From: Psammoneis japonica
Lineage: Eukaryota
Length of the DNA stretch: 64,000 nt
Direction of reading: 5' to 3'
NCBI GenBank assembly: GCA_008632985.1
Contig: QPGO01000010.1
Span: 744,001-808,000 of the forward strand
A program made the translations under genes and the position numbers. This document shows positions 5,501-64,000 of this stretch, piece after piece. Under the pieces are notes generated by a model. That model had not been told where the DNA came from and searched no databases. It saw nothing but the letters and a program-made list of their open reading frames with translations. How positions within the stretch are numbered: the stretch's first letter is position 1; the number at the start of each line of letters is the position of its first letter.

Positions 5501-5689
5501 TTGCACACAATTTCTGCCGCGTCCTTTTAGGGTGCACTGGAAGTGTGGGTTGGCCGGCACCGGTGTTGCTGGGCAAAGGTGCAACAGCACTCAAAAATTA
5601 GAGTTTGGTTTTTTTTTTGACAACAACAACTCTCAACAACTCTTGACTTCCCCTTTTTTGCTGACTCAAACAACTGTCTGACCTCTGAG

Positions 5690-25200: not shown

Positions 25201-26129
25201 TTTCTTGCTCGCTCCTCTTCTTGCAAGGCATCGTCCAGTTCCACTTGTTCTATTGCCGTAAGTGCATCAGGTGAAAGATTATCAGTATCGCCGTCTCTAT
25301 TGGAATCGTCTTTCGTTGGAGCATCCTTTTCCCCAGCAGTCTGTTTACCCGTTGCAGAAAGAGGCGACTCATCAAGATCGGGTATGCTGTCGTCGTCTAC
25401 GTCCGAGTCCTCGTAGTAATTGCTAAACTCTCGATTCACACCAGCAGCCGCCGCCATTGCAGCCGCGGCGGCACCTGATGACCACCCGCCAGGTGGAGAA
25501 GAACCTTCGCTACTACCGGATTCGCCAAACATGAAAACAGGATGATAAGAACCGCCATCGCCACTGGAACTGCCGCTGGCCACAAAGCTCTTTGCCCCTT
25601 GCGAACCACTCATGGGTCGCGGCGCCCTTTTACTACTGCCACTATTATCAGAATCCATCGACATGCCCATAATTTCAACAAACATGGACATCAGCGCCTT
25701 CATCTCTGCTTCTGAACACGGTGGTCCCTTCTCGCCACTCGATGATCGACTCGCCGCCGCTGCTGCTGTAGCAAAATCAAGACTGCCCGACTGAGCTAGG
25801 GCTGCTAAATCAAGACTTCCAAAAGACACGGACGATCCAGAGGGAGGAGGACGACTCGGGCCATAGGGTCTGTTGTTGCTACCCGAACGAGAAGACGACT
25901 CCTGATTGGCTGAGGATGAGGAATTGGAGGAGCTCTTTTCCCATGCTGCCGCTGCTGCAGCTGTTGCCTGAGAGAGGTACTGAGCAGCAACCTCCGGAGG
26001 TAACGACTGCGGAAACGACGTTACACGCAGAGTTTGGCGCTTTCCCTTTCGTGATTTAGAAGAAGAATCGGTATTCCCTCTCGCAGACGAGGATTCATCG
26101 CTACGATTGCTCTTTTTGCTGTTATCCAT
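22270..26129 (-). CDS. Ankyrin-repeat + UBA-like domain protein (2 exons)
   Basis: Ankyrin motifs GRAAIHTACFNG and GWAPLHYAVVSGSSEIVEVLLKEG; UBA-like ISALLGMGFSSEQISAAV; intron 24473-24558 joins the two ORFs in frame. Confidence 0.85.
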
Positions 26130-26469
26130 ATTGCCCCGAACGACTGTTTTTCGTCGTCGTTCTCTGACTTTACGGAACCTTCACACACTCAATGATCTGG
26201 TGAAGTGGAAGACAGCAACAGAGGATGCTTCTTGGTTGTTTTAAAAGACCTGAGGAACAGTCACACACCAATCACCGTCGTTTAGTTGCCCACGGACCAG
26301 TGGCACGTTGGATGGTTGCCCGCTTCAAGCGCCACGAGGAAACATTATTGCGTCGATCGTACGTGAATTGTAGTATACATTCTACAGAGTTTGTCTCAGC
26401 CAATGAAAACTCTTTATTCTGGCTGACGTTGAATAATTCTGTCTGCCTGTTGTCAGTCTCTTTGGACTG

Positions 26470-29400: not shown

Positions 29401-32400
29401 ACTCCTTGCTGCTGTCTAAACAGCAGATGAGTCTCCATGCAGAGACTGTCACAGGAGCTGAAAGACTGGTGTCATGATGTTGGCACTGCTGTCATTGTTC
29501 TTGTGAGCCAAGTGGCTTGAAAGCAAACTACATCACGTGCATTGTGTGTGACAAACTAAAATCTTGTTCAAATCCTGTCACTCCCCAGTTTGCTTGAGAA
29601 GTCCACAGCAACAGATTCAAGGTCAGATTGGTTGAAAGCCTTGGGATCAAAGCTCCAAAACATTGGAGGACAAAGGAGGTTCCAGACCTGGGAGTGGCCC
29701 CAGTGCTTGCTGAGCTGTGCTGAGAATGTCAGCTGGGTTGCGGGACCTTCGATGAAATGAAACTCAAGGAAATCAGATGCAATCACCTCGTGCACATGTG
29801 GAATGAGAGGGCAGTGTGTCACTTGTGTGACTTGGAGTGCAAGATGACAGCACTGTCCATGACCAACTTGTTGTCCCCAAACATGCAACATGTTTCACAA
29901 GTGGGGACGCCAAGGTGACGCAAAGTGATGCACAGATCAATGATCTGCTCAACTCATGTCCTTGCGGCAACAAACTCAGATCCATGCATTGCAGTCTCAA
30001 CTGTTGCTTGTTTCTTGGAGAACCAATCAACTGGAAACTTGTTGAGGAAATGAATGATGCCCATGACAGAGCGTCCAGCAAGCATGCAATGGAACAAGTT
30101 TGCATCAACACAGTGAGTCGTGGCGACAAACTTGCCAAGTGGCTCAGGTGCATCTTGTGGGAGCTGTTGCACAGTTCTGCTGGATCCAGTGCTGCACGCC
30201 AAGGTGGCCATTGGGCACTGCAATGCCCCCGATCTTGCAAACATGTGCATGGCACATGGGATCAAAAAGGCATTTGAAGTGTGCCACACTCAACTGGGCC
30301 AAAAATTTTGGTGTGTGCCAAATGAGAGGAACAATGTCCAAGCAAAAGATTTGCTGCAGCCAGAAAGCCATGGCTTTTGTGGAGAGCCATGTGCTGCTGT
30401 GCACAAAGGAGAGTGCAGTGACCAACGAGGTGGTGATGCAAGACAAGATGATGCACCACACATCATGAAGAGCTGCTGCAAGCTGTCAGTGCACTCCCAC
30501 AACCTGGTGCACAATTGTTTGCATCCAACGTCTGTGGCAAATTTGCAAAGTGCAAACAGGAGCCTTTCAAAAGTGAACTTTGGCCTTGGGAAATGCCAAA
30601 GCAAAGGGTCGGCAACTTTGGCTGACAAACAGAGCAGTTGAACAAAAAGAAAGTGCAACATGGACAGCAAAATTTCTCAGCCACACAATGGCTGGGTGCA
30701 CTCTGGCAACATTTCTGAGAACCCAGAGATTGCATCATGTGGTGGTGAAGGATTGCAACAGCAGAACAGCAAAGTCAAGGAATTTCACAAGCACTTCCAT
30801 GAGCTGGCACATCACTTGTGTTGATCATTTTGCACACACACCAGCTCTTGTTGCAACACAGTTGGGAAGCACAGTTTCTTGCATTTGGTGACAAAAGTGC
30901 TCACAAGTTGTGTGAGATGTGCTGTTCTTTGAAACACTGTCGTGGCTGGAAGAATCAGTGGAAAAGAATGTTGGCAGCAGATGATGAGGGAAAAGTGGAC
31001 ACAAACTGATTCACTCAACTGGAGTTCTTGTACAAAGCATGCAAAGAATTTGCCATGATGAGCTTTCTGCCTTGAAATGAGAAAATGTTGTTGAGGATGG
31101 GCACACTTTGATGTTGTGCCTGCCAAATTGGAGAACATTTGCAAACATTGCTTTGTCCCAGCTCTCAAGAAGCAGTCTTCAGTTGGCACAATCTTCAGCA
31201 AGACCAAGCAGGTCATTGCTCTCAGCTTGGCTTGGCTCTTTGACAAAGGACAAAAGAAGCTGTCTGACCAAACCAACGTTGCCAAAAATGCACGGGAGCA
31301 ACTGCTGACAACAAACTCCAGTTTCAGAGTTTTTTTCTGCAAAGAGAGCAAACCACCCAGCACTCCTTTGCTTGCACTTTCCATTTTCTTTTTTTGACAT
31401 CACAGCTGTTCAGATGTGGTGCACACATGACACAGAGCAGGTCATTTGCATGTCTTGCAAAAAATCATGATTTTCTCATGCTGCTGTGGTCATTCATGGA
31501 GAAGCACAAACAAGGGCAAAAATGTGCACAAACCACTTGCTGTCCATCCTCTGCAAAAATGAGTCCAGGAGCTTTTGTCACATGTGCCATGCATGTCAAG
31601 CACATGTGTGCATGCAAAGCATGTCATTTGCATGCCCCTGCTGCAAAGCTGCAATGTTTGCAATGAGTGTGAATGCCAGTTTGCAGTGTGTGATCCAAGT
31701 TGCCAAATGCTTTTGGTTTCATTTTTTTTGGCAAAGAGTGCATCGACTGGCACCAGATTGTTCACAGCCATTGCTTTTGCCTTGACAAGGTTTTTGGCCA
31801 GGCATGCTCCAGCTTTGGTGGGTGGGGCTCCATGCCAATGGACTGTGACATGAACATTTTTTGATGATGTGTCATGTGTCGCATGTGCTCACTTCTCATG
31901 CACTCTTCTGCTGCAGAGCTGCTTTTTGCTCCCTGTTTTGTGAAATCAAATGCTTTTTGTTTTGTCCATTTGTGAGAAGGGCTGCACCAAGACAAGTTGG
32001 AATGATGCACTTCAAGCATGCATGAGTTGATGCACTCATTGCATTTTTTGTTGGCAGTCATTGACACATTTGTCACCTGACAATTTTGGCACAGAACTTG
32101 CACATGGAATTCTGTGGGTGGCCAGCATCACACCTGGTTCTGCCCAGAGCTGGAATGTGCTGCACTGGCTGTGCCTTTTGTTGGTGGTTTTGAGCTCATT
32201 GTGCCATTGCAGCAACTGCACCCCCTTTCTTGCAGGCTCCACCTGTGTGTGTGCCACAACAGCTGACAAAGAGATCCAGAGAGCACATGGGCACTCACAA
32301 TTTCCAAAGCTGGTGCTGCAGGTGGTTTTGCAGTGGGAATGGACAGTGCTGTGGGTGGAGCAGAAGACTGGGAAACAGTGTTCAGCATGCTTGCCTGTTT

Positions 32401-35282
32401 CTGGGCTTCATGCACAACAGCAGGAGATGTGCTGGGTCAGCTGGTGTGCAGCCTGCCCAAATCAGAATCCAGCAGCAATCCCAATCTGCCACACTGTCCT
32501 GTGTTTGCTGCATTTCCTCATGCTAAAATTTGAGCTCTGCAACAGAAACACAGGAAAAAGCACATGAAATGGCAACCTTCTGACAAAAAAGCAGATCAAG
32601 CTTGCAAAATCTGAGTCATGCCTGGCTCATGGCCAAATGATCACTTTGCCAAACTTTCCTCAAATCAGAACAATGGCCCTTTGTCTCTGTCCAAATTCTC
32701 AGTCTTTCTTCTGCAGCTTCACTTCCAACACTGCCACTCAATTCAATGCTCACACCCACCATGTTGTTAGCCCCTTTTTTGAGTGCTTCATTGTGATGGG
32801 TGTTGTCTCTGTCCACATGCAGAGCACATTCATGAGCCATGATTTGCCTGTGCTTTGGCTTGCCCATGCACTTTTTTTTGCACCAAGACCAGCAAAGCCA
32901 ACAAAGTTTGTGTTGCTCCATCACATGTTCCAGAATTGCAGCCCAAGAAAGAACAACCAACAATCACTCTGTCTCATCATCCAAGTGCGCTGCCCCAGCT
33001 GCAGGAAGCTGGCCACTGCCCAACCACAAAAACAGGAATGAAAGGTTGGGCGTAAACACAACCAAACATGAAGAAACAAATGACATGCAAAAGCAAACTC
33101 AAAGCAAACCATTGCAAGCTTTTGGCCCAAAATCAAAGCATTTTCAACTTGCACCTGACAGTGCTTGTTCACAATCTAGAGCAGTTTGCACAAGCTCTTC
33201 TTCCTGTGTGCGCTCTTTCCACCTCTCTGATTGCTGCTTCATTTGCCATTCCTGTTGCCCTGGTGATCTGGCTCATGTCAAAACCTTTGTCTGCAGTTGA
33301 CTTTTGCAACTCTGCCCTTTCTTGTTGTGGCAGGTTGAGATGTGATTCTCTTCTCCCTCAGCAGGATTGGCTGAAGCCTCAGTCTGAAGAAAAAAGCGCA
33401 GAAGAGAAAATGGACAAATTGGGCTGAATTCATGATGACTGCAACTCTGCCAAAGCTCAGCCTTGACTTGCACCAGCAATGGAAAACATGTTCCTGCTTT
33501 CTTCTTGCTCTTCTTGTTTTTGCCTCCACCAGCATCATGTTCCAGCCCCAGGAGAGCCAGAGGTTGCAGAAAAACGGGGCCACACCACCAAGTCCCCCCA
33601 GGCCTCCTCAAGGGACAGCTGAGCATGGCTGGTGGTGCCAGCCTGCAGGCAACAGATGACAACATTGTCATGGTCAAATGCACAACAAGGCACCACTTTT
33701 CTTGACAATCATTCACATTGTTTGTCAGAAACAGCAAGGCATGCTTGTGAAGATGGTGAGGGTGTCTTGCATGTTGAAACAGAGAGAGATGGCTTTGCTG
33801 GCAGCAACAATCACATGAGTTGGGCAACAGGGCCAGAGGGTGAAAGAGATGGGAGCAGTTGACCACACAAAGTGTCTTTGTTGTTGGCTTTGTTCTTGGG
33901 AAGAATGATGAAAGCCAACAAAGAAAAATTCTCTTGGGGCAGGTCATGGTGTGTTCAGCATGTGTGTGAGAGCAGTGCAGCAGGTGGCAGGTCTGCTCTG
34001 ACAACTGCCTCAACTTCTTACAAACAGGAGTTGGCACTGCTTTTCTCAACTGTCATTGTGGGTGCAGGACAATCAAGTGTTGAATGTCATCAAAGGACAC
34101 AGTGGGCATTTCAATCCTCCCAAGGCTGGGTCAGGCCAGCTGCAGTCACAGTGTGGCTGTGTTGAGACACAACGCAAAATTTGCACTGCTCCCATGTCTT
34201 GTGTGCTTTGCACATGCCAGCGGTGAAGTGGGGCCATGGAGATGTGATGTCAGGACACAAAAAAAAACCAGATCTGTTTTTGTGAGTGCTGTCACTCCTT
34301 TGTCAGCTGTGCCGACACCGGCTGACCCACACTTCCAGCACACCAAGCCAGTGTGGCAGAAGGGGAACAGGGGCCAGCCGACAGAGGCATCACCTGAAGG
34401 TGACGCCCTCCTGAAACAACTGGCAATGGAACGTGTGCTTCGGAGCGCAAGACGCTTTGATGTCAGGACACAGCAGATGCTCCTCTCTCCAGGGTTGCAC
34501 ACCTTGATTGGCCATGAAGAAGTTGTTGGCTGGCAAAATCCATTGTGTGGCCTCAGAGCCATTTGTTTGGTGCAGATCCTCAGTGGTGGTCACAAAGAAG
34601 TCTCTGTGTGCTCTTACAGCTGACAACAATGTGGCAGGTGGAGCACTGTGTGCTGCTGGTTGACAGGACAAAGAGCCAGCAGTGGGGGTGGTGTGCTTTG
34701 TTGTGGTGTGGGACACACCTGGGTTGAGGCTGTTCTCCCCATTCATTTGCTTTGTTTGTTGTGTTCCTGTTCTGCATGTGTCTGGACATGCTTCGCACAG
34801 CCTCTCTTTCTCTTTGCACTGCTTCTTCCTGGCTTTGCTGTGGCAAACAAAACAGCGGCAAAGGTGCCATTCACTGCAATGATGCCCACAGCAATTGGCC
34901 ACACAAAAATCATCTTGTTTGTTGTTGGTGTTGTTCTTAAGAGTGAAAGCCGCCAGCAAAGGAAAGTTCTCTTGGAACAGGTCACGGAATGTTCAACACA
35001 TGTCAGATGTGATGTGCATGATGGGCAGTGGGTCTCAAACAATTGCTCTTGTTGAGGACAGCCTTCATCTGTGCATGCATGCCAGATGTGGAGCAAGCTT
35101 GTGTGACAGGCAACAATGACAGAGACCATCAGCTTGAGGTGAGGCAGTCCTGCCATTGGCCAGGTGGAAGAAGGCCCTGTGGCTCCAGTCAGTGAGCCTG
35201 TGAGCTGGCCACCAGTGGCCAGTGGGGCCCTGGGAGTCCCCAGTCTAGAGTGGGGCCCTCTGCCAGAGATGAGAGACTGGCG
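26470..35282. repeat. Large nested decayed-repeat block; almost no TpA, few CpG
   Basis: About 8.8 kb with only a handful of TA. It contains a Copia relic and several internally related fragments. Confidence 0.8.
29363..30170 (-). mobile_element. Old Ty1/Copia relic: RNase H end + PPT + 3' LTR (29363-29580); same family as 60541-63680
   Basis: DAPEPLGKFV...VDANL.HCML.GRSVMG..HFLNKFPVDWFSKKQATVETA; minus-strand AACTGGGGAG|TGACAGGATTTGAACAAG; LTR ends TTCTGTCA and aligns with 63404-63680. Confidence 0.9.
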
Positions 35283-37869: not shown

Positions 37870-39460
37870 GCTGCATGCACGCGCGCGCACTCGTCCCGCC
37901 CGCCCTCGTCGTCGCGATCGCGTCCGTCGCGTCCAAATTTCGACTGTCAAAAGACAGATTGTCTTGCAAACCACAGTGGCATGCATTTCAGCAATGCATG
38001 CCCTCAAGAAGTGCTTGAAACCTTGTGAAGTCATTGCCGCACTTGCTGCACGATCATGTCACCGTTGGTCACACAAAATGCTCAGAGCCCCCACATGTCG
38101 AATGACTTTGATCAACACCAGAACTCCATTGCAAATGACACAGCCTGCATGGCATGCAAACAAGCATTCAAACCAAAATCCACACTTTGAGCTCAAATGA
38201 CATGTGCACCAAGAATGACCCCACCCCCATCCACAATCAACATTGAGTTTTGACACCAAGCCAAAAGTGCTTGCAACAAGCACATCCTCCGCAGCGAGAC
38301 ACACAGGATGCTCAAATGGCCAACAATGCCAGAGCTCCAAAAAAGTCAGTGCAAGTGCCAGCCCAGGCAAGTGCTGGCAACAACAGCTTGTTTTGGTGCT
38401 TTTGTGGGGAGCGAGTGCAACATGCACATGCAATGACAAGAACATCTGCGCATGAGAGCAACAGCCGCCAAATGTGCAGACAACAATTTGTGAAAGACAC
38501 ACACCATTTGAGCTGCACTTGAGATGTGTGACATCTCTCACAACAATTTGGCACATGCCATGAAGGCCAAAAGCACAAATGTTGCTCTTGTCTTCTTGGG
38601 CCCATTGCAACAGTGGCAAGGGGGTGAAATTTGGTGCACAGCTTTGGCGGGGCACAAAAATGCAAAAAAAGATGCTGACAACCAACAGGCCTCCTGGCAA
38701 GACATGTGTTTTGTCCTGCAAACTTTTTGCTCACAATTTTTCTGCAAAAATGAACCACATTGTCATCAGAAATTGCAGCACACCTTCTTGCACTGTTGCC
38801 ACAATCACTGTCATTTTAGATGCACCCAAAGACAACAACAATGGATGACTTGCCAGACAAAGCTTTGCTGCATGTGCAGAGCAGCAGCACCTTTCTTGTG
38901 GCTTTGGCTGCCTTGCTGCTCTGCTTCTTTGGTGTCCTCTGCTTGTGAGATCAGCTTGTCAACTTTGAATGTGCACTTGATGAGTTGGATGAGGAAAAGC
39001 CATGGGGAAGTTGTGAGCTGTGGTGCTCTGGGGTGCAGATGTCCTGTGTTGTTGTGTTGCAACCACGCTCTCTCTCTGTTTTGTTTCAAAAGAACCCTTG
39101 CTTTCTCAGTGCCTGCTGCAGCAAAATGACTTTCTGTTTTTTTGCAGGAAATGTTTTTGCTCATGGGCTGGGTAAAATGGCACACAATCCACCATTGTCT
39201 CACACTTGTCATCTTTGTGCTTCCTCTGTGTTCTGTGTCTTCCCCCAGGAGTTTGTTCTTCTCTCACACAGGGCGCGGCACAGCCAGCCAGGTGCAGCAA
39301 CCTCCTTGTCTGTTGTCAGATCCAGAACTCCAGAACAGGACCTGCAAAACTGTGCCAGTTGTCCTTGAAGTTTTTGTTCCCTGCATCATGAAGCTTTGCT
39401 TCTGCCCTCTTGTTCCTCCAAAAAAGCAAAGAATGGTGTGGGTGTGCCCGTCACCACATT
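37870..39460. repeat. Decayed repeat block; TpA-depleted
   Basis: Almost no TA and a TG/CA excess. Confidence 0.65.
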
Positions 39461-43977: not shown

Positions 43978-46695
43978 ATGAAGTTTTTGCTCCATTTTGT
44001 GCTTTTGAGCACATGTCAAGATGGCTTTCTTGCCGCCGCAAAGGAGTTGCGTTGGACTAGAAGAGCCTTGAACTCAGACTTGATCGGGCAGAAACAAACA
44101 GAGGATCGGGTGGTCGGATATGAAGGTTTCCTGAGGAAGGCCGAAAGTCATCGAGAGCTTCAAAACTTTTCGCCAGTTCCACCGAGTCCTAGGCCACCCT
44201 CCCCGCAACCGCCATCTCCCCGCCCCCCTACGCCACGTCCCACACAGCGGACTGTAACAGAATGCGAAGTAACGGTACGTACAACATGAAAAAATCGAGC
44301 TTTGCTGGCGTAGTAAAGAATTGACAATGCAAACCAACCTTTACGTTTGCCGATTACTTCCTTTAGGTGAATATTGATTGCACAAGTGCAGAAAACAAGT
44401 TTGTTCCGTGCGATGATATTCCGCAGCCTCAGGGAGTGTGCTCGGACGGTGAACCCTTCAATTCGCTCGTGTTTGTGTACGGGCCACGAAACTGCTACCA
44501 AAGCGTAAATGCTCAAGGCAGCGACTTTATTTGCGAAGATACGCCTGGTCCACCCCTCAGTAGAGTGAAACTTCAATGCGGGTCTGGCAATGGCATGACG
44601 GAGTACTTTGACAAGACCGTGACACCAGGCGACATTGTCACGGTTGCTGCAGCACCAGGCAGTGTCTTGTCAGATAGGCTTAACTGCACAATTACGACTA
44701 CCGACGTGAATCGCAACCCTTATCAAAAGCTATCGTTGGACACATCCGGAGATGCTCCACTTCACCTGAACAACATCTTTGGTAGCTTGGTCCTAAAGGC
44801 ATGTCAAGATGAAACATGTTTTGCGGATATAGAGTATGACATCACCATGACGAATATTGGCGAGTCGGACTTCAATATCACCAAGGTTGTCCAGTCGACT
44901 AATGGTGGGAACCCAGAAGACATTACAGATCTTGTCCCTGATACGGAGCTTGCCCCAACCGAGAGCACCGAATTCAGTACCCCTGACACCGTGGACATTT
45001 GCGTCGACATGGTGTACACGACAGAGGTGGTCATTGAAGCCGAGCCTATTCCGGATGGTGACATTTGCACAGGAAAAGATGAGGTGAGTATACTATTTCA
45101 TTTTGAATTCACAAGAGATACCAAGAAAATTGCACAAGCTGAATTCTTGTCTGGTGTTTCTTTGCGATTAAAAGATTGTGTTTGATACGAAGAACTTACC
45201 GACACCGGCTCCGACTCTGGCACCTACACCGCCTCCGACACAACGAGCTGAGACGTTACCACCAACTCCGCCGCCATCACCGGAGCCTACCCCTCCACCT
45301 ACCGGTACTCCCCCTCCATCTCCGAGGCCCACACCTCCGCCAACCCCCCCTCCCTCTCCGGAGCCCACTCCTCCGCCAACCCCACCACCTACGCCACCTC
45401 CGAGTGTCCAACCAACGCCCAGGCCGACGCAAAGAGCTGAGACGCCGCCTCCCACACCAGGCCCGACACCGCCGCCGTCTCGCATGCCTACTCCTCCACC
45501 AACCCCACCGCCTACCCCACCTCCGAGCATCCAACCAACGCCCAGGCCAACGCAGAGAGCTGAGACGCCGCCTCCTACACCAGGCCCGACACCGCCGCCC
45601 TCTCGCATGCCTACTCCTCCACCAACCCCACCGCCTACCCCACCGCCTACCCCACCTCCGAGCATTCAACCAACGCCCAGGCCAACGCAGAGAGCTGAGA
45701 CGCCGCCTCCTACACCGGGTCCGACGCCGCCACCTACGCCCAGGCCAACACAGAGAGCTGAGTCACCTCCACCCACGTGTTTGCCAAAACCCCCGTCACC
45801 CTCGCCGAAGCCCCCATCGCCTTCACCGAAGCCACCTGCAACTCCACATCCTACTGTGACGCCACCGCCTCCGGCAACTGCGGCTCCAACGAAAGCACCG
45901 AAGCCACCGTCGCCGTCGCCAAAGCCACCGTCGCCTTCACCAAAACCACCTGCAACTCCAAATCCTACTGTGACGCCACCGCCTCCGGCAACTGCGGCTC
46001 CAACGAAAGCACCGAAGCCACCGTCGCCGTCGCCAAAGCCACCGTCGCCTTCACCAAAACCACCTGCAACTCCACATCCTACTGTGACGCCACCGCCTCC
46101 GGCAACTGAAGCTCCGACGAAAGCACCGAAGCCCCCGCCGCCATCGCCAAAGCCTCCTTCGCCGTCTCCGAAGCCGCCATCACCGGGACCTTGTCCTCCC
46201 AAGCCACCGTCTCCTTCTCCCAAGCCACCGTCTCCGTCGCCTAAACCACCCTCTCCCAGCCCGAAGCCACCATCACCGTCGCCAAAACCGCCATCACCGG
46301 GCCCTTGTCCTCCCAAGCCGCCATCTCCATCGCCACAGCCACCCCCCAGTAAGGGAGCCAAAGGAGGAGGATCAAGTAGCAAAAGCAAAGGAGGATCGAG
46401 CAGCAAGAGCACGGGCGGAAAGATGGGAAGTGGAAGTTCGAGCAGCAAGAGCAAAGGAGGATCGGGCAGCAAGAGCAAGGGTGGTTCTTCTTCCAAGAGT
46501 CACTCTTCTAGCAGCGGGTCTTCTGGCGAGAGCAAGGGTAAAGGCGGTGGGAACTCCAGCGCAAGTTCATCTTCCAAAAGCACGGGCGGAAAGAATGGAT
46601 CATCGAATGGCTCATCCTCCTCCAAGAGCAAGGGTGGTAAAGACGGGACCTCATCTTCAAATAGCTTTATGCATGAATACCGAAGAGGCTCATAA
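43978..46695 (+). CDS. Secreted Pro/Thr/Ser-rich repeat protein with a Cys-containing globular domain and a Ser/Gly/Lys tail (cell-wall or adhesive-like)
   Basis: Signal peptide, RELQ (RXL) site, exons ~43978-44274, 44368-45083 and 45175-46695; PTPPPT, PTQRAET and KPPSPSP tandem repeats; SKSKGG repeats. Confidence 0.8.
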
Positions 46696-52032: not shown

Positions 52033-53515
52033 TTACGTGTTGGCGAGGCCTTGCCTCATGTAATCATAGACAATGGTGCCAACGCCGTACATCCAAGCTA
52101 TGAAGCAGTTACGAGAAAAGCGTACAATGTTAGAGCAACTGCGAAAGGGCTTACTTGAACTAGTACAAACACGATTACAAGTGACTTACCCATATGGTAC
52201 GCGTTGTCGAGCACCTTGATTGTAAAGCCTCGAGTAAATGCCTTGGATCCACTCTCGTGGTACATGCGACGCACGACAGAGACAATGTCACGGCGACTGC
52301 CAGGAGGAAGCGGCATTTGTGAGTTGGTAATAATGTTATCAATCGGATGAGTGAGAGCCGAGAAGGCTCCTCCTACTAGTCCACAGCCAATCAATTCGTG
52401 CATCTTGAGCTGATATCCATTTCCATATCCGTGCTGGCGCTTGTATTCGAGCAAACGATTCTTGACTTCAGAGGAGACGGCGAATCGAATGCCCCAATCC
52501 AAAGAACGACGCATCATCATGGGCAACAGGCCGTCGTATAGAGCGGTCGCGCCGTGTTTCTCTACAACTACTCGGCATGCCTGTAGTGGCGACAATGCGT
52601 TTAGAGACTCGCAAGCCACGACTGAGACCTGTGGAAAAGCAATGACGTAAGAGGGAGTAGTTAGCATTGCTCCTTGTTTTCTGTACACCACAGCTTTTGA
52701 AATCTATGCTACACTTACCTTTAGTTTCTGGCACGGGCAGACGACCAAAGCCTGCGAAGCACCGCCAAGGAATCCAGACAGCTTTTCCGCGGACTTGGAA
52801 TCCCAGCCACCTCGAGACTGAAGTTGGTACATGCTTTCGTGTTGAACGAAAAGCACTGGCACGCCCTTCAAGCATTGCAGCAGTCCCCACGGCAAGAAAC
52901 CCCGATAGAATGCTCCAACAAAGCCAGTTTCGGAAACGAAGCCTTGATGCAAGCTATAGTAGGAGGGACACGCTTGGTGCCCAACAGTCATTTGTTTGCC
53001 AAGCCGCAGCACTTCCAGGTAATGCCCGCCCGTAAGACCCTCACCCAAGATCATGAGAGGGCCAACGAGAAGCTTCTCAAACGCCGGTCGACTTCGAATA
53101 TGATGTGAAAGCTGGCTACGATTCCCATTGCCAATGCTGGGTAAACGGGAAAATCCCGATGCCGCTTCTATAAAAAGAGAAAGGATTAGCAATGAAAGAG
53201 ATTCGCGTTGCACAATGAGAAACAATAGAGAAAGGATTAGCAATGAAAGAGATTCGCGTTGCACAATGAGAAACAATGGCAATATGCATTCTCAATCGCT
53301 ACCATCCACCATTAATTTTTCTTACCCGTCATTGTCTCCCTACCGGTACGTGCACGTGCACCTTGAGGTAGGACCTGTATTCAGACGGTCGATCTGCTTG
53401 GTGATGTGTGGTGGAGCAACCTGCTCGCGATCGAAATCGAAAAGTATCGGTAGGTTGGAATGTGAAACGAGAAGGTGTTTGGATCGCATGCTTCAAATGC
53501 GATGTCTTCTTCCAT
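52033..53515 (-). CDS. Mitochondrial carrier (SLC25) family protein, multi-exon; start uncertain
   Basis: Carrier repeats HYLEVLRLGKQ, VCPCQKLKV and THPIDNIITNSQ; FYRGFLP and LYDGLLP; last exon AWMYGVGTIVYDY...stop at 52033. Confidence 0.8.
53176..53277. repeat. Perfect 51-bp tandem duplication, probably intronic
   Basis: AGAGAAAGGATTAGCAATGAAAGAGATTCGCGTTGCACAATGAGAAACAAT x2. Confidence 0.95.
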
Positions 53516-55767: not shown

Positions 55768-58700
55768 ATGTCTGTGACTGACGAAAACGCAACAAACAAC
55801 GGCGATGAAGCCCCTGTTCCAGCCCCTGACGACTCATCGCTGCTGACAGACACAAATGTGTCGCTGCTCACAGAAACGAGCAACGTGTCGACTCTCGAGT
55901 GGGCGGGCGGCGTAATTACCAATGCTGGAAAAATCCTACGTGGTAAGCTTCCGACGCCACCTTCTTCCGAGCCAGATCGGAGCGACGTGCCCCGAGTCGT
56001 TGACAGCAAGGAGTGGATTGTGGAGGGCGCTGCTTCGAACGAACTGACTCGAGAGAACGGTTCGACTAAAGCAATAGAAGGCGCTACTTCGAATGAATCG
56101 ACTCGAGAGACTGGTTCTGCAGAAGATTCTGCGACGCAAGACGAAGATGAAGACGTGATTGATTTTCTGAAAGATGAACCTCGAGAAATGACGTGGGGGA
56201 GACGGATTGCTTTGAAACTCATGTCAAAGCCATGGTATAATCCTTCACTCAAAGGAGAACGCAAAGAACTGGCATACGCTGCTTTGGAGAACGAAACCCA
56301 AACCAATGATTCAGCGGACGAGTCGAACACAACTTGCCGCCCAAACCATCTCTGGAGAAAGCTTGGGCGTATTTTGAACACGTTACCCTTCCACGTTATA
56401 TCGACGAGCGTGATCCTCTCAAGGAGAAAAAGAGTCTACCGAAGCGATGTGTGCGCAAGTTCTGCAAAGGAAACGATCTTACGTTGGATCGTGCCGAGCC
56501 TGGAGAGAAACATTTGCCCACCCGTCTGTATTCGGTTTTAACTACACCACTTTCCCAAATGGGAGACTTTGTGAGTTCAAGCATGTCTTCTTGCAGCCTT
56601 CATACGACTTGTCGCCCTCTCTCATTACTTACATTTGTTCTTTTCTGACGCAATCGCCGTTGCTCCTCGCACCTGTGCCACACAGGGCCTGGGAATCGGT
56701 CTATACTTTTCGTCATTACGAGCCGTTACCTTGCTGACGCTCATGGCAGGGGTCATAAGCATCCCCAATTTCATTTACTTTGCCGGAGACGAATACTCGG
56801 ATGGGCAGGAAGGCGTCGGCACGCTCATTTTGGGTTCTGCGATATGCACAAGACAAGTATGGGTCCCTTGCCCCGACTGCAACTCAGACGACTTTGAAGA
56901 CAGGAGAATTGGATACGCGCCTGGCGAAAACAACGAGACGCTAACGTTTGCGCTTCAAAACGATTGTGATGGGGCAACCTTGCAACAAGGGTTCATCAAC
57001 TACGGTACCATGATTTTCATGATTATTGGAATCTTTATCATGACTTTCTTTCAGAAACGGATGGAAGTCAAGTTTGACGAAGATGAGCAGAGCGCACAGG
57101 ATTATAGCGTCCTTATTGAGAACCCACCTCCGGATGCCCTCGATCCTGAAGAGTGGAGAGCCTTTTTCAAAGAAGTGTTCAACGCACAGTTGACCGCATG
57201 CACCGTGGCTGTCGACAACGATTTCCTTGTACGTTGCCTCGTGGAGCGACGGGAGTGTTACCGAAAGCTAGAAATCACTCTTCCTCCCGGGACGCCCCTC
57301 GACTCCTTTAAAAAGCTCGCTGGTATTGCTGCACAGCTTGAGCGCGATCGGAAACTCCATCAGCGGCTCTTGGCCATGATCGCACCGGGAGTTCCAGAAG
57401 TGGTGGCTCGCATTGCCGTTCTAACCGCCAAGGTCCAAGGCTTGGCTCAACTGGATTATCCTGCTACAAACGTTTTTCTAACGTTTGAAAGCGAAACAGA
57501 TCAGCGAAAGGTATTGTCGGCTCTCACAGTGGGAAGCCTCCGTGTCTCGCGACAAGATGCGCGTGCTCTAAAGGATCCCTCCTATTTGTTTCGCGGCGAA
57601 AAAGTTCTCAAAGTCAATGAACCGGACGAGCCCTCGGACGTGCGGTGGCAGGATCTTAACGTCAAGTTCAAGGAGCGGATCAAGCCGCTCATCACGACGA
57701 CTCTTGCAACAGTTGGTGCGATTGCCCTGGTCGCCTTCATTGTCAGTGTCTGCAACAACGTCAACTCTGCATGGGCCGCCATTGCCATTGCGGTAGGAAA
57801 TGCTGTCTTCCCTATGTTTGCAAAAATCTTGACGAATTTGGAGGCGCACACGTCAGAGGGAAGTAAGCAAACGTCACTCTACTTCAAAATTGCTTGTTCC
57901 GCTGGGTGAACACGGCGATTGTCATTACTGTTATTACGCCCTTTACTTCCACTCTGGAGAACCAAGGCGGAGTAATTGAAGGCATTTCCGCAATTTTCTT
58001 TGCCGAAATCGTCACCACCAACGTGATTCAATTGGCGGATCCAATGGGGCATGTCCAACGTCACTTTTTGGCGCCGCGGGCTCTAACTCAAGACATGGCA
58101 AACATCAATATGAAAGGAACCGTCTTTGAACTCGCTGAGCGCTATACGAATATGACCAAGTAAGTTTGATTGACTTTTGGAACGGTTGTTTGCTTTGTGA
58201 GTGACCTAACCTTTGCTCTATTCTTGTTAACAGGATATTGTTTTTGGCCATGTGGTATTGTGCCATTTACCCTGGTGCTTTTTTCATGTGTTCGTTTGCA
58301 CTCTTTATCAACTACTTTTCGGATCGTTTCTCGTTGATGCGAACCTGGGCGAGGACTCCTAAACTGGGCACGCGAATCGCCGAATTCAGCCGAAAGTATT
58401 TCTTCTCTACCGCTTTGATTGCCATGGCATTGGTGTCAGCGTACGCTTGGAGTGGCTTTCCTTACGACAACCTTTGCAGCAACGAAGATAAGGTAGACAG
58501 CGACTACTTAGCGGTCACTACCATTGTCGACGGAAATGGAAATGCCCAGAATATAACCGTGGAATCATCGGATCCAACTTATCGCTACTGCCTTCAAGAT
58601 TTGCTTCGAACCAAAGGACGCAGCTTTCCGGCGATTCCTAAGCACCAACCAGAAGGAGGAGAATGGATGACGGAGGACCAGGAAACCCTCACCTCGGCTT

Positions 58701-59116
58701 ACGGATGGACGAGTGTTGGTGTTATGGCTCTTATGCTTTCTGTTTTTGTTTATGGTTTTCTAGTTTCGGTTCGACGCATCTTCCGAAGCACTTACAGCCC
58801 GTCGGGCAAAGACATGGCGATCAACTTTTCAGATGTTGCCAGTGTCAACACCTATGTTCCACAAGTATTCAGTGGGCTCTTTGCCTACCCTTTGCTGGCC
58901 TGCAACATCGACGGAATTGATCCTGACTTGTTTGATTGGTGCAACCCTGATCGACCTCATTCATACTACGACATTACCAAGGATGCTGATGAGCTACTGA
59001 AAGGAATCGACGTCAAGGCCACCCACGTGTTCTCGCGATTGGCTCACTGGCCTCCGGATGACCAACGGGAGCAGAAGGCGAGCAGACGCACCTTGTTGTC
59101 ATCAAAAACGGATTGA
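55768..59116 (+). CDS. OSCA/TMEM63 (CSC1-like) channel, multi-exon, frameshifts at ~56335 and ~57895
   Basis: GLGIGLYF, DEQSAQDYSVLIENPP, VFLTFESE, EPDEPSDVRWQDL, LAERYT and YFSDRFSLMR; multiple TM helices; introns at ~56571-56684 and 58160-58233. Confidence 0.85.
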
Positions 59117-59339
59117 ATGAATCGCAATCGTCTTCGACCACCTCTTTGTAAGCTCTCGAGCGTAGTCCAATCTTTCATATCCGCGAGTCGTACTAGTCAC
59201 ACCACCAACACGAAAAGATGGTTGCTAGCAAATTCAAATGTCATTGGAATGCGCGCCTCACTCATGGTGCTCTCTCCAGCAGCAGTTTTCTATCTTAGCT
59301 AGTTCATTGTCGCTCCAGCGATAGCAAACTTCTCTTCCC

Positions 59340-59530
59340 CACTTACTGTAGTGTGCCTCGAGAAGTAAGTTGCTTGGAAAAGTTGATGGTTGTAAGGGAT
59401 TTGCCTTACCGCTACTACTCTTAGGGTGTAGGCCCTCTACTGTAGCTCTAGAGAGTAGACTCTAGAGCTACTTCTAGAGTAGAGAGTACTTGCTAGTCTC
59501 TACTCTAGAGTAGGTATGAATAGAGCTATT
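59340..59530. repeat. TpA-rich CTAG/GTAG/CTAC low-complexity tract
   Basis: ctctagagagtagactctagagctacttctagagtagagagtac... Confidence 0.8.
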
Positions 59531-59605
59531 CCCGGACTCGCCCTCCTCTGTCGCAACTCGCAACGGAGCGAGCGAACGCTCGCGCGCGACATGTGGGTTG
59601 GAATG

Positions 59606-59975
59606 TTGCAGTGGCCCTGGTGGGCCGTCGTCACTCAGATTTCACATCCCTTTGGACGATTTGGAGATTGCCCTCTCTGTCGCTCTCTCCACTTGCTCTG
59701 CAGCATGATCCTTTTGCTGTGGGCATGTCTGTGCTGCAGTCAGGTTGACTGTGGCACAAACCACAAGGAACCCTGGGCCCCCCTGCTTCTGCTGACTGGC
59801 AACTCAGAGTTTCAGGGGCGCCAGTCCCAGAAAACTCTGCTGGACGATGGCAGCAGCTCCAGAGTGAGCTGCAAGGGCTGGCGGTGGTCGTGTGGTGGGC
59901 TGGATTCAAAACTCTGCACTCTCTCACTTGACATTGCAGTGGGCCCTGGGGTGGGCTGTCGTCGCTCAGATTTCA
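59606..59975. repeat. ~330-bp tandem repeat; the second unit is interrupted by an LTR composite and resumes at 63681-63960
   Basis: TTGCAGT(G)GGCCCTGG...CTCAGATTTCA at 59606 and 59934; 59641-59930 aligns closely with 63681-63955. Confidence 0.9.
59971..59975 (+). other. 5-bp target-site duplication TTTCA (partner at 63681-63685)
   Basis: CTCAGA-TTTCA|TGACAG ... CTGTCA|TTTCA-CATGATCCC. The empty site CTCAGATTTCACATCCC is present at 59634-59650. Confidence 0.85.
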
Positions 59976-60540
59976 TGACAGGATTTAAACAAGATTGACC
60001 AACTCGATTAAATCCGACCCATCAACCTGAAAAATTGCGATACCCAGGAATCGAACCTAGGTCCTCTTATAACCGGTTACCGACTAAACCATTTACCGCT
60101 TTCTTCAAACTGACAGGCTTTTTGTACATAGTCACACATGTTTCAGCCAGAGAGTGACATGCACCTTTAATTCTTCTTAGAATTCTGTCACTCCCCATAT
60201 GTCACGAAGCTGTCTGACGTCACGAAGCTGTCTGACGTTCCTTTCTTTGGACAATGACACTTCTCACAGCTCCCCTTCTACCTGGGCCACATTTTTCTGC
60301 ACACGTCATGACCTCCCCGGCGAACTGACAATTGGGCGGCCATTCCGGCCTCGGCATCCCTAACAAGAGCACCATGTGCATCGTCGGTCTGTCTCACCGC
60401 AGCCTCTCCTCAGTTTTAGAGTCATCTTGAAGGAGCACACACACCCAGGTTCAAATCATCAACGGTCCTCGCACCATGACAAGATTTAAACAAGATTGAC
60501 CAACTCGATTAAATCCGACCCATCAACCTGAAAAATTGCG
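59976..60540 (-). mobile_element. TRIM-like non-autonomous LTR element: truncated 5' LTR (60477-60540), PBS, ~286-bp non-coding interior, PPT, 3' LTR (59976-60190)
   Basis: LTR bounded by TGACAG...CTGTCA; its first 64 nt are repeated at 60477 with one mismatch. On the minus strand, TGGTGCGAGGACCGT (PBS) follows the 5' LTR and GGGGAG (PPT) precedes the 3' LTR. Confidence 0.75.
60036..60099 (-). ncRNA. tRNA-derived (tRNA-Gly-like) 64-nt Pol III cassette inside the TRIM LTR; anticodon arm degenerate
   Basis: GCGGTAAATGGTTTAGTCGGTAACCGGTTATAAGAGGACCTAGGTTCGATTCCTGGGTATCGCA then ATTTTT: A-box-like TGGTTTAGTCGG, B-box GGTTCGATTCC in a paired T-arm, 6/7 acceptor-stem pairs, oligo-T terminator. Confidence 0.65.
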
Positions 60541-63500
60541 CGTGCTCAAGTTGAGATCAGCAACAAAGTGCTCGGGTTCCTGCACACCCTCTTCATCTCC
60601 AGCTGGCAAAGTGAGCCTCACCAGCAACACCAAAACTTTGCCGAGCGTCGACACCAGACCGCGAAGCGCATGGCGAACACTGTCATGGACCGTTTTGGTT
60701 CGCCCGCCCACACATGGCTGCTGGCGCTCATGTGCGTGTGCTTCACACTCAACCACACAGCGTCCCCACGTCTCCACTGGCGCACGCCCCTCGAGACTCT
60801 CACTGGATCCACCCCGGACATCAGCCCATTGCTTCGCTTTCACTGGTGGGAACCAGTGTGCTTCCACCTCGATGACTCTGATTGGCCGTCCGAATCCCGT
60901 GAGTTGCGTGGACGCTTCGTTGGCATTGCTGAGCACGTCGGCCACCAGATGACCTTCAAGATCCTATCTGACGAGACTCAGAAGATCCTCTGCCGGTCCA
61001 ACGTTCGCTCCGCTGCCCCCGATCCTGCCGTTCGAAACCTGCGTCTTGATCCTCCTGATGGGGAGCCACCCGAACCCATCATCAAATCTCGCCATGACGA
61101 CAACCCCATCGATTCTCCTGATGGGGAGATCAGGACACCCAAGATGCCAGTTTTTGATCCGCAAGACATCATTGGACGCACCTTCCTCATGCAGCCACAA
61201 GAGGACGGACAACGCCACAGAGCTCGCATCGTCAAGGCCATCGAAGACCACGAATGGAAAGTGAACGGCAATCCCGAGCTCACTAAGTTCGTCTGCTCTG
61301 TCAACAATGACGAATACGAGGAAGTCCTTGCCTGCAATGACATCATGAATCACATTGAGCAAGAAGACGAAGACACCACCATTTGGAAATTTCGATGCAT
61401 CGCATCACACGAAGGACCTCTGAAGCCTCACGACCCAACCTGGAAAGGCTCAAGCTGCAACATCATGCTTGAATGGGAAAGTGGGGAGATCACGTCCGAG
61501 CCTCTTGCCATCATCGCCAAGGACGACCCCGTCACCTGTGCCATCTGTGCACGAGAGAACGGACTCCTCGACACGGATGGCTGGAAGCGGTTCCGCACTA
61601 TCGCGAGGCGCCAAAAGAAGCTATTTCGCATGGCCAACCAAGCCAAGCTTCGCTCCTTCCGCACTGCACCTCGCTACAAGTACGGATACGAAGTTCCCCG
61701 GAACTACAAACACGCCATGTCACTGGACGAACGCAACGGCAACCGCAAGTGGGGAGACGCAACTAATCTCGAGATGGACCAACTCGACGAATACAAAGTC
61801 TTCCATGACTGCGGGCCCTTCAAGTCTTCCACTCCTCCTGCGGGACACAAGAAGATCCGAGTGCACCTGGTGTGCGACGTGAAACACGACGGTCGCCACA
61901 AGGCACGACTCGTAGCCGACGGGCACCTCACGGACGCACCTGTCGACAGTGTCCACTCCGGAGCAGTCTCCCTCCGTGGCCTTCGGCTGATGATTTTCCT
62001 GGCCGAACTCAACAAGCTGGAGACATGGGCCACCGACATTGGCAATGCCTGCCTTGAAGCCACCACCAAGGAGAAGCTTTACATTGTAGCTGGACCCGAA
62101 TTTGGCAAACTCGAAGGACACATCCTTGTCATCCACAAGGCACTGCATGGACTGCGCAGCTCCGGTCTCCGCTGGCACGAGCGCTTCGCCGACTGCCTGC
62201 GAGCTGAAGGCTTCTTCCCCTGCCGCGCCGAACCCGACATTTGGATGCGCAGGAACGGCGACCACTGTGAACACATTGCCGTTTATGTGGATGACCTCGC
62301 CATTGCCATGAAGGACCCTCAATCTTTCGTCGACACTCTCACGGAAAAGTGCAAGTTCAAGCTCAAGGGTGCGGGACCCATTGAGTTCCATCTGGGTTGC
62401 GACTTTTCCCGGGACCCCGACGGAACCTTGTGCCTGTCTCCGCGCAAGTACATCGAGCGCATGGTCGACAGTTACGCCCAACTGTTTGGGGAGAAACCTG
62501 CCACCAATGCCCTGTCACCTCTAGAGAAGGGTGACCACCCCGAACTGGACACTTCCAAACTGCTGGGACCCGATGGCATTCACAAGTTCCAGTCTCTTGT
62601 TGGTTCACTCCAATGGGCAGTGTCCCTTGGTCGAATTGACATTACCACGGCTGTCATGTCACTCTCTAGCTTCCGAGCTGCGCCCCGTCAAGGCCACTTG
62701 GATCGTGCCAAACGCGTCTGTGGGTGCCTCTCCAAGATGCGACACGGTGCTCTCCGCGTTCGCACGGAAGAGCCCGACCATTCGGATCTCCCTGCTCCGG
62801 CCTATGAATGGATGCATTCCGTGTGTGGTGAAGCAGAAGAGATGATCCCGAAGGACGCTCCACCGCCCCTTGGCAAGTTCGTCACTACCACCCGCTGCGT
62901 TGATGCAAACTTGTGCCATTGCATGCTCACCGGACGCTCTGTCATGGGAATGCTCCACTTCCTCAACAAATTCCCGGCTGATTGGTTCTCCAAGAAACAA
63001 GCCACCGTGGAGACTGCAACCTACGGATCTGAATTTGTTGCCGCAAGGAATTGTGTTGAGCAGATTGTCGACCTGCACATCACCCTGCGCTGCCTTGGCG
63101 TCCCGATCCGCAATGTTGGTTGCATGTTCGGTGACAACAAGTCGGTTGTAGACAGTGCCACCATCCCGCACTCCAAGTTACACAAGCGACACACCGCACT
63201 ATCGTTCCACCATGTGCGTGAGGCAATTGCCTCTGGTTGCCTTGAGCTCCACTTCATCGAAGGCTCCCGCAACCCTGCTGACATTCTCAGCAAGCATTGG
63301 GGTTACTCCCAAATCTGGGACCTTCTCCGCCCCCTCATGTTCTGGAACTTCATTCCATCCGAAGTCGAATCTGTTTCTGTGGCTCCTCAAGCAAACTGGG
63401 GAGTGACAGGATTTGAACAGGATTTGGATGCGCGCGAAGTGTCGCGCGCTGTTTAGTTTACCGCGCACAGTTTTGTGTGCTTTAGTTCCGCGCGTTCACG

Positions 63501-63680
63501 CGCGATGTAGTTTGCTTTCGAGCCACAAGGCTCACAAGAATAAACAACAGTAGCCCGATTGTACCGACTCACACGTCTCTCGGCTCCTGCAACGGTCTCT
63601 GAGCGGAGACTCATCTGCTGTTTAGACAGCAGTAAGGAGTTGTTGTTTGAATTCTTGCCATTTGCCTTCATTTTCTGTCA
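60541..63680 (+). mobile_element. Ty1/Copia (CoDi-like) 3' half: partial integrase, RT, RNase H, PPT and 3' LTR (63404-63680)
   Basis: SEP.QQHQNFAERR, DVKHDGRHKARLVADG, DIGNA.L, YVDDL, WFSKKQATVETATYGSEFVA, FGDNKSVV and NPADILSKHW; GGGGAG|TGACAG...CTGTCA. Confidence 0.95.
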
Positions 63681-64000
63681 TTTCACATGATCCCTTTGGA
63701 CGATTTGGAGATTGCCCTCTCTGTCCCTCTCTCCACTTGCTCTGTGGCACAATCCTTTTGCTGTGGGCATGTCTGTGCTGCAGTCAGGTTGGCTGTGGCA
63801 CAAACCACGAGGAACCCCCAACTCAGAGTTTTGGGGCACCAGCCAGTCCCTGAAAACTCTGCTGGAGAATGGCAGCAGCTCCAGAGAGAGCTGCAAGGGC
63901 TGGGGGTGGTCGTGTGGTGGGGCTTGATTCCAAACTCTGCACTCTCTCACCTGAATGTGAGCAGTGCCAGCAAGAAAAAAAGTTGACAGGGGTGGAGCAG

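Follow-up and report, generated by a model that had tools for sequence, protein, structure and literature searches.

Hypermutation of invading DNA at the dinucleotide TpA, by which A:T pairs are turned into G:C pairs, has been reported once before, in one rhizarian alga, the chlorarachniophyte Bigelowiella natans, and no enzyme has been established (Mettrop et al., bioRxiv 10.64898/2026.01.13.699255, April 2026; cited here for its main text). In this work we describe a second instance, in a different major lineage and with a far stronger signature. The DNA concerned is a stretch of 64,000 nucleotides from the diatom Psammoneis japonica (GenBank assembly GCA_008632985.1, contig QPGO01000010.1, positions 744,001 to 808,000), called the window below, in which the pol gene of a Ty1/Copia retrotransposon, a long interspersed nuclear element (LINE) and several old repeats have lost most of their TpA. 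No report of this signature in a diatom was found in the literature searched in full text, subscription journals and preprint supplements being outside its scope.

In B. natans the process was seen as de novo hypermutation of integrated viruses. Mutation-accumulation lines placed 231 of 302 nuclear mutations in two viral inserts, one from an integrated giant virus (a nucleocytoplasmic large DNA virus, NCLDV) and one from a virophage; 230 of these 231 were A>G or T>C, all of those on TpA, with a rate of about 6e-7 per site per generation (range about 1e-7 to 1e-6) and in some lines only (10.64898/2026.01.13.699255). The events were called from Illumina reads, and a viral insert present in single copy was hit. 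TpA-poor coding sequences of that genome were enriched for reverse transcriptase, endonuclease-reverse transcriptase and DDE domains. DNA adenine deamination was proposed as a defence, with an ADAT2-like candidate enzyme that is itself a prediction, and the discussion of the preprint adds that ADARs favour an A that follows U. Its main text is silent on diatoms and on any motif of flanking bases.

The window resembles B. natans in the near-exclusive A>G and T>C changes at TpA, giving TpG and CpA, beside normal host DNA. It differs in its host, a diatom (Stramenopila) and not a chlorarachniophyte (Rhizaria), and in host TA content, which is 3.7% of dinucleotides against 6.0% in B. natans. The targets are retrotransposons and old repeats instead of integrated NCLDV and virophages, and depletion is deeper, with observed/expected dinucleotide ratios (o/e) of 0.02–0.2 for TA against 0.45 in the B. 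natans NCLDV insert. Relative to the main text of the preprint, two features belong to the window only: CpG has also been lost from its old zones, and TA has survived preferentially as YTAR (Y, pyrimidine; R, purine). Finally, the window holds a fossil signature, whereas the B. natans mutations were caught in real time (10.64898/2026.01.13.699255). The original prediction, made from the letters of the window, had not recognized the changes as a described mechanism, a statement that the preprint has put out of date.

Better-known processes resemble the signature in part. Repeat-induced point mutation (RIP) of ascomycete fungi also ruins repeats by dinucleotide-specific transitions, with strong skew and sharp borders. 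Its direction is nevertheless the opposite one, since RIP turns CpA into TpA (C>T), leaves AT-rich DNA and makes stops, whereas in the window TpA becomes CpA or TpG, GC content goes up and no stops arise. TpA is nearly absent and CpA and TpG are in excess, and the stop triplets counted in the most depleted, or saturated, zones are 8 TAA, 8 TAG and 389 TGA. Decay of 5-methylcytosine at CpG likewise yields TpG and CpA, and it would account for the CpG deficit of the saturated zones (o/e 0.12–0.29). It is unable to remove TA, however, and the Copia pol shows no such deficit (CpG o/e 0.87) yet most of its TA is gone. The TpA process and CpG decay are thus separable, the former being the faster. 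These comparisons uphold the earlier argument that neither RIP nor 5-methylcytosine deamination can account for the TA loss. ADAR and APOBEC enzymes also produce clustered, deaminase-driven transitions in mobile elements, but APOBECs change C, not A, and ADARs act on double-stranded RNA, in animals only and on one strand. In the window both strands are affected: T>C on the sense strand is frequent, non-coding repeats are saturated on both strands, and a pyrimidine is favoured 3' of the A while a purine after it protects.

TpA loss in retrotransposons and repeats

The window is eukaryotic DNA with a GC content of about 50%, and its genes, which lie on both strands, have few introns. Counting o/e in sliding windows of 1 kb over its 64 kb, which sets the scope of what follows, separates host genes, two "young" retrotransposons (the Copia pol and the LINE) and "saturated" repeats. 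TA is under-represented throughout, host DNA included: host regions have TA o/e of 0.55–0.64 with CpG at about 1.0, and 37,000 bp of pooled host DNA contain 1,391 TA (o/e 0.58; CG 0.98). In the young elements TA falls to 0.17–0.20, with CpG near normal. In the saturated zones (about 14 kb pooled) it falls to 0.03, with CpG at 0.16, TG at 1.84 and CA at 1.87; individual zones range from 0.01 to 0.07 for TA and from 0.12 to 0.29 for CG, and the longest run free of TA measures 1,544 bp. AA and TT (1.06–1.25) and AT (0.77–0.92) are not depleted, so that a general drive from AT to GC is not at work.

The level of TA changes between host and depleted DNA within one or two 500-bp steps, that is, within about 0.5–1 kb of host genes. 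TA-poor stretches coincide with mobile or repeated DNA and host genes are spared, as had been predicted, and the association that a sliding-window comparison was expected to reveal across the genome holds for the 64-kb window. The claim that flanking host genes are normal was right for the host flank at 58000–59600 (TA o/e 0.72), where the open reading frame (ORF) 58205–59113 has 5.3% Tyr; the immediate flanks of the Copia element, however, are old repeat units free of TA.

Within the Copia pol, positions 60541–63403 (2,863 bp) contain 27 TA (o/e 0.20) and 193 CG (o/e 0.87). The first 423 bp of this region (60541–60963) hold no TA and 30 CG, exactly as first noticed, the nearest TA lying at 60510 and 60965. 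The consequences for the encoded protein were assessed in a MAFFT alignment, using columns with at least 70% agreement among relatives. With the first 60 of 120 homologs as reference, Tyr is conserved in 31 columns, at which the window copy keeps Tyr 9 times and has Cys 13 times, His 5 times, Phe 3 times and Trp once. The other residue classes are kept at 66–100% in the same comparison, 17 of 19 classes at 82% or more, with the lowest values for Thr (19/29) and Ile (23/31). When all 120 homologs are used, the 26 conserved Tyr columns read 7 Tyr, 11 Cys, 5 His, 2 Phe and 1 other. Both conserved and invariant Tyr residues of integrase, of the reverse transcriptase and of RNase H have been replaced. 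Seven motifs had been singled out as carrying Cys or His in place of Tyr, and the consensus of 19 relatives has Tyr in every one of them (NAYL, KALYGL, SVYSG, YEYIAVYVDD, IYGYL, LRYLG and SYMFGD).

At the DNA level, a codon alignment was made with the 58 metagenome relatives, out of 80, whose ORF reaches 650 amino acids or more. Conserved TA is kept at 11 of 33 sites and has become TG at 14, CA at 6 and TT at 2, so 20 of the 22 changes lead to TG or CA. The other fifteen conserved dinucleotides are kept at 684 of 830 sites (Fisher p=1.9e-9), and conserved CG, kept at 29 of 36, behaves like this background. The tabulation by dinucleotide context that had been suggested as a check therefore demonstrates that the changes are TpA-specific and yield both TG and CA, i.e., A:T>G:C at TpA on either strand. 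Among the 80 relatives TA o/e has a median of 0.70 (range 0.30–0.99), and the window copy lies below all of them. Since TA is normal in the relatives, it was lost from a normal ancestor and is not a habit of the family. The GC content of the window copy is 56%, against 48% in the relatives.

The same replacement of Tyr is found in the LINE. Its ORFs had no match in a Pfam search, and the element was identified from motifs and from homologs, which carry PF03372, PF00078 and PF00075; the named ones come from the diatoms Fragilaria crotonensis and Nitzschia inconspicua. Compared with the first 80 of 120 homologs, only 5 of 26 conserved Tyr are kept (8 Cys, 6 His, 5 Phe), against 270 of 370 other residues (p=6e-8). 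Taken together, the 52 conserved Tyr codons of Copia and LINE comprise 12 kept, 19 Cys, 11 His and 10 other. In the saturated zones several frames stay open for more than 1,000 codons when TGA is read through. Nineteen such read-through frames, as well as the long frame of the LINE, were without a Pfam family at E<=0.01, and local alignment of the whole Copia block against 26001–35200 recovered only about 800 bp. The targets thus shown are at least two unrelated retrotransposon classes and repeats of no assigned family.

Independent copies, order of loss and flanking bases

Two Copia copies in the window can be compared directly, the young one and a degraded one. One reads DLHITLRCLG where the other reads DLCITLRHLG, and relatives have Tyr at both sites. 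An alignment of 772 bases contains 13 dinucleotides at which one copy has TG where the other has CA. Since TG and CA are each one step away from TA and two steps away from each other, the hits were independent in the two copies. The young copy retains 13 TA, 8 of which correspond to CA or TG in the old one, and of its 41 CG, 29 are TG or CA there: the degraded copy has continued to lose both dinucleotides in place. In young copies most TA is gone with no detectable loss of CpG, and old ones have lost both, from which it follows that TA went first and fast and CpG later. The TpA process is much faster than CpG decay.

Four coded runs (X1 to X4) of one sample of the same species cover the stretch. 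X1 behaves like an accurate DNA run, a depth of about 57 over host DNA with records of up to 315 kb suggesting short accurate reads. X2 is spliced at GT..AG and RNA-like; it does not cover the pol and is uninformative on expression. X3 and X4 are tiny and contain the element only. At full depth, about 0.2% of host positions are different between X1 and the window. There are also eight single-base indels between the window and X1 host DNA (48888, 50794, 53379, 53533, 55575, 55690, 56327 and 57893), four of which are also present in X2; these are probably residual long-read errors of the assembly. Given these differences, X1 is not simply the source data of the window.

In X1 the summed depth of the Copia family is about 90,000, which corresponds to roughly a thousand copies with at least 90% identity. 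Among the 37 sites analysed, out of 169 at which another letter was recorded, 8 of 11 inside the Copia block are exchanges between TpA and TpG or CpA, compared with 2 of the 26 host sites (p=1.6e-4). At 5 of these 8 block sites the other copies have G where the window has TA, and at 3 they have TA where the window has CA.

The pattern extends to other assemblies. A Copia homolog (P0074) has 10 Tyr, 5 Cys and 5 His at 26 sites, a JGI metagenome contig (L055:601-2759) has 12 Tyr, 8 Cys and 5 His at 33 sites, and a Logan-derived LINE protein (P0307) has 5 Tyr, 8 Cys and 7 His at 26 sites. In a library of 1.8 billion proteins, 5 of 148 representatives show Tyr-to-Cys/His replacement. Public Copia and LINE sequences with the pattern also include P0446, P0488, P0484, P0402 and P0423, and some sequences have no Tyr at all at the tested sites. 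Copies of this kind make up a few percent of the protein sets retrieved when the Copia and LINE ORFs of the window served as queries: besides the 5 of 148, they are 1 of 120 Copia homologs and 1 of 80 LINE homologs. The Cys:His ratio in hypermutated relatives varies either way (9:4, 2:8, 2:6, 6:3 and 6:0), which may reflect strand-coordinated episodes.

The bases next to TA appear to matter as well. YTAR accounts for 20 of the 30 TA left in the saturated zones and for 228 of 1,391 TA of host DNA (p=2e-9), and the ratio of TA density between saturated and host DNA is 0.006 for RTAY, 0.03 for RTAR, 0.03 for YTAY and 0.23 for YTAR. In the 52 Tyr codons of both elements, change to His (T>C) occurred in 8 of 18 codons that follow a purine and in 3 of 34 that follow a pyrimidine (p=0.005), while change to Cys was independent of the preceding base (6/18 and 13/34). 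Tentatively, a single rule valid on either strand describes these results: the A of 5'-TA is hit more readily before a pyrimidine (5'-TAY), which is equivalent to T being hit more readily after a purine. Bacterial TadA naturally acts on the A of U-A-C-G within the anticodon loop of a tRNA, and in all ADAT substrates A34 comes directly after the universal U33; an enzyme of the TadA/ADAT type would thus be expected to like T-A. A sense-strand excess of A>G over T>C was not significant, either at conserved TA of the Copia pol (14 TG and 6 CA, p=0.12) or in X1 (43 and 28 places, p=0.10). The survival of YTAR is tentatively regarded as new, being absent from the main text of the B. natans preprint (10.64898/2026.01.13.699255).

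The Copia locus and its surroundings

The Copia pol frame matches Pfam RVT_2 with E=1e-24 and can be aligned in full length with relatives over residues 4–940; hundreds of relatives exist at 55–66% identity. With integrase sequence upstream and RNase H downstream of RVT_2, the element has the organization of Ty1/Copia, and its frames are long on both strands. Gag, protease and most of integrase are missing from the window's element. In other copies integrase-coding sequence precedes 60541, as the loose ends of X3 and X4 contigs indicate. Coordinates of the element and of the other features are collected in Table 1.

Table 1. Annotated features of the window (long terminal repeat, LTR; apurinic/apyrimidinic-type endonuclease, APE; reverse transcriptase, RT)
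Feature	Position	Strand	Remarks
Non-LTR retrotransposon (LINE): APE endonuclease, RT (GYVDD), RNase H	1-5500	+	TA o/e 0.17, CG 0.82
Saturated zone, repeat of no assigned family	5501-9000	.	TA o/e 0.05, CG 0.21; TA-free run 5599-7143
Saturated zone, repeat of no assigned family	15501-16500	.	TA o/e 0.07, CG 0.29
Saturated zone	26501-34500	.	11 TA in 8 kb, o/e 0.02; CG 0.12; TG and CA o/e ~1.9
Degraded copy of the 3' end of the window's Copia	29364-30162	-	From alignment; inside saturated zone 26501-34500
Saturated zone, repeat of no assigned family	38001-39000	.	1 TA in 1 kb, o/e 0.01; CG 0.18
Host introns (X2 joints)	44274-44365, 45082-45172, 52098-52189, 52627-52716, 53168-53325, 56571-56685, 58160-58233		
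Old repeat unit, left of block	59639-59969	.	0 TA in 331 bp; CG o/e 0.29
Block containing the Copia element, 3,710 bp	59970-63679	+	Absent from one X1 contig
Non-coding 5' part, 565 bp	59976-60540	+	19 TA, o/e 0.48
Ty1/Copia pol, 5'-truncated (integrase end, RVT_2 reverse transcriptase, RNase H)	60532-63456	+	974-codon stop-free frame
LTR-like 3' end, 275 bp, starts TGACAGGATTT	63405-63679	+	9 TA, o/e 0.54; CG 1.24
Old repeat unit, right of block	63680-64000	.	0 TA in 321 bp; CG o/e 0.13

The X1 contig that lacks the block joins 59969 directly to 63680. It is a single contig of depth 59 with a short side of 40 letters, six letters (ATTTCA) fit either side, and it has no differences from the window over 59718–59969. 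ATTTCA stands at both junctions. The block is therefore an insertion/deletion polymorphism between the window and the X1 sample, of which the derived state could be either. On both sides it is bordered by old repeat units, TA-free and CpG-poor, the left one being 83% identical to 63680–63954.

The LTR-like 3' end has the highest summed contig depth within the stretch and aligns with the degraded copy at 29364–29600. Its sequence in common with the non-coding 5' part is limited to the first 20 or so bases. In the latter, a segment of about 63 bp resembling the start of an LTR occurs twice (59978–60040 and 60478–60540), around a segment of about 437 bp with a tRNA-like fragment. This fragment is a tRNA-like 3' half (GGTTCGATTCC-type) on the minus strand at 60041–60100, followed by an exact 18-bp tandem duplication at 60201–60238; ARAGORN and Rfam gave no match for it. 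The tRNA-like piece and the duplication are possibly an insert within the 5' part of the element, either similar to a short interspersed nuclear element or made by template switching. Tandem Repeats Finder reported trivial arrays only over 59000–64000.

A TA-rich patch with words of the CTAGAG/GTAG type lies at 59400–59530, directly 3' of a host gene and about 110 bp from a TA-free repeat unit, and the border of the depleted zone is therefore sharp there. One host protein has its best named relatives in diatoms (Amphora coffeaeformis, 56%; Cyclotella cryptica, 51%; a Bacillariaceae genome, 43%), which sets the window apart from B. natans. X2 contigs skip pieces of 74–158 bp at GT..AG (CT..AC on the opposite strand), which are host introns. 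An anoctamin/OSCA-like host gene (ORFs 56575–57909 and 58205–59116) has its frame broken by the window indel behind 57893. A host ORF has nucleoporin-like matches, of no use for taxonomy, in a protein atlas search. An open frame of 671 codons at 18902–20914 (minus strand), with 14.6% Cys and no Pfam match, lies in DNA of host type with normal TA. The internal tandem repeats of a host ORF at 45300–46350 have units 78–86% identical, 57–64% GC and TA o/e of 0.44–0.7; as they keep their TA, short intragenic repeats are not targets.

A probable mutational process and its alternatives

We consider it probable, at roughly 78%, that these observations reflect a real, DNA-level mutational process directed at TpA and acting on mobile DNA. 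As to its chemistry, adenine deamination stands at about even odds. In such a scheme the adenine of 5'-TA, preferentially of 5'-TAY, would be deaminated to hypoxanthine and copied as G, and the actor would be a TadA/ADAT2-like or other deaminase working on DNA. A chromatin, methylation or small-RNA cue would mark mobile DNA and aim the process, and the CpG loss of old copies would be ordinary 5-methylcytosine decay on top of it. Because TpA is its own reverse complement, deamination of A and modification of T leave the same sequence. It is thus conceivable, although we rate it unlikely, that the T of TpA is the base attacked, being oxidized or modified by an enzyme of the TET/JBP type to 5-hydroxymethyl- or 5-formyl-uracil and then mispairing with G, with the same signature and the same targeting. 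5-Formyluracil is mutagenic and 5-hydroxymethyluracil favours TpA in dinoflagellates, and a T-directed R-T-A rule fits all results as well as the A-directed T-A-Y rule. The sequence itself offers no counterpoint; what speaks against thymine chemistry is that no candidate other than an adenine deaminase, itself a prediction, has been named in print (10.64898/2026.01.13.699255).

Similarly low is the probability that integrated DNA is spared and that the RNA or cDNA of retrotransposons is edited, by an ADAR- or ADAT-like A-to-I activity at UpA, and fixed in new copies. Such editing would agree with both clearly affected identified elements being retrotransposons, with many copies carrying the same G, with the depletion of the pol and not of the LTR, with young elements following the base 5' of TA on the sense strand, and with the sense-strand excess of A>G, non-significant as it is. 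It has difficulty, however, with the frequent T>C on the sense strand (the source of His at 11 of 52 Tyr codons), with non-coding repeat units and repeats of no assigned family being saturated on both strands at near-equal TG and CA, with a degraded copy that kept losing TA and CpG in place, and with Cys:His ratios that go either way among hypermutated relatives. The favoured 3' neighbour is a pyrimidine here, whereas ADARs favour a 3' G. In B. natans, furthermore, it is DNA viruses already integrated that acquire the mutations, while the cells grow vegetatively (10.64898/2026.01.13.699255). Two further readings are very improbable. One is that a modified base at TpA in silent DNA was misread and that the true sequence is TA, a base-calling artefact which had been named as one outcome that would overturn the original prediction. 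The indels between the window and the X1 and X2 contigs (e.g., behind 57893) do suggest that the window was probably assembled from error-prone long reads. But X1 contigs, which are distinct at host sites, carry the TG and CA states and even G where the window keeps TA, and the Tyr-to-Cys/His pattern recurs in unrelated assemblies, and the B. natans events came from Illumina reads (10.64898/2026.01.13.699255); the artefact is largely refuted. The other is intrinsic composition, whether by selection against UpA/TpA (through an RNase or a DNA-binding factor) or by GC-biased gene conversion among copies. Host TA o/e of only 0.58, the high GC of the copy and the concentration of loss at synonymous boundaries would fit it. 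Replacement of conserved Tyr, the normal TA of the relatives, the undepleted AA, TT and AT, and the same ancestral TA turned into TG in one copy but into CA in another do not, and at Tyr sites it is refuted.

A number of observations nevertheless weigh against a DNA-level process acting on mobile DNA, or against parts of it. At several sites most other copies carry the same G (64–94% of X1 depth), and some changes were therefore inherited from a common mutated ancestor instead of arising independently. The X1 comparison draws on 40 of the 169 sites with another letter, from which 3 seen in X2 only were dropped. TA is close to the host level in the LTR-like end (o/e 0.54) and in the 5' part (0.48) while the pol between them is at 0.20, which is odd for a process acting on a whole insert, although their starting TA content may have differed. 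Compared with those 38 of the 58 relatives that have at least 2,400 aligned bases, TA was lost most at synonymous codon boundaries (ratio 0.10), then at codon positions 2–3 (0.21) and least in Tyr codons (0.31); part of the loss could have taken place in a lineage still under selection, or the excess could come from the higher GC of this copy (56% against 48%) or the higher GC3 of this host. In the young elements the TA ratio to host is 0.11 for RTAY, 0.09 for RTAR, 0.47 for YTAY and 0.45 for YTAR. This pattern tracks the 5' base on the sense strand, which a strictly strand-symmetric TAY rule does not predict; the ancestral composition of the young elements differs from that of the host, and Copia numbers against relatives are too small for a flanking-base test. 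These data contain no de novo events, and it may be that this lineage no longer has the process; the link to transposable elements has the scope of the 64-kb window, with enzyme and cue being hypothetical. The term "repeat-targeted" of the original prediction goes too far in this respect: a single-copy insert was hit in B. natans (10.64898/2026.01.13.699255), and the repeats at 45300–46350 and the LTR are undepleted, so repetition is not established as the cue.

The process has a particular effect on genes. T>C never makes a stop, and A>G after T can only turn TAA into TGA or TAG into TGG. It therefore cannot create a stop, and frames stay open while the protein is ruined. An intact ORF is for this reason no sign of function here. 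If the process is real, annotation pipelines would keep calling wrecked genes as intact ORFs, and dead transposon genes would remain as long ORFs that inflate gene and protein catalogues.

Although still short of even odds, a wider proposal may be put forward tentatively: that diatoms, which are a dominant group among ocean phytoplankton, possess an active defence at the DNA level, in which adenine deamination at 5'-TAY removes TpA from mobile elements of every class, at a pace well above that of methyl-CpG decay, and inactivates proteins without making stops. It would be the same system as in chlorarachniophytes, and hence either old within SAR (stramenopiles, alveolates and Rhizaria) or repeatedly acquired, and the TAY context would point to a TadA/ADAT2-like enzyme recruited to DNA. 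Apart from this proposal, the window extends the signature to a second major lineage and to the commonest mobile DNA, at saturating strength. It also offers TAY as a candidate for an extended motif, and a natural time series, with TA lost first and CpG later, and opens a comparative search for the enzyme among deaminase or dioxygenase genes that are common to genomes with the signature and absent from others. The A-to-G editing of DNA that the signature implies would be of interest as a natural counterpart of engineered adenine base editors.

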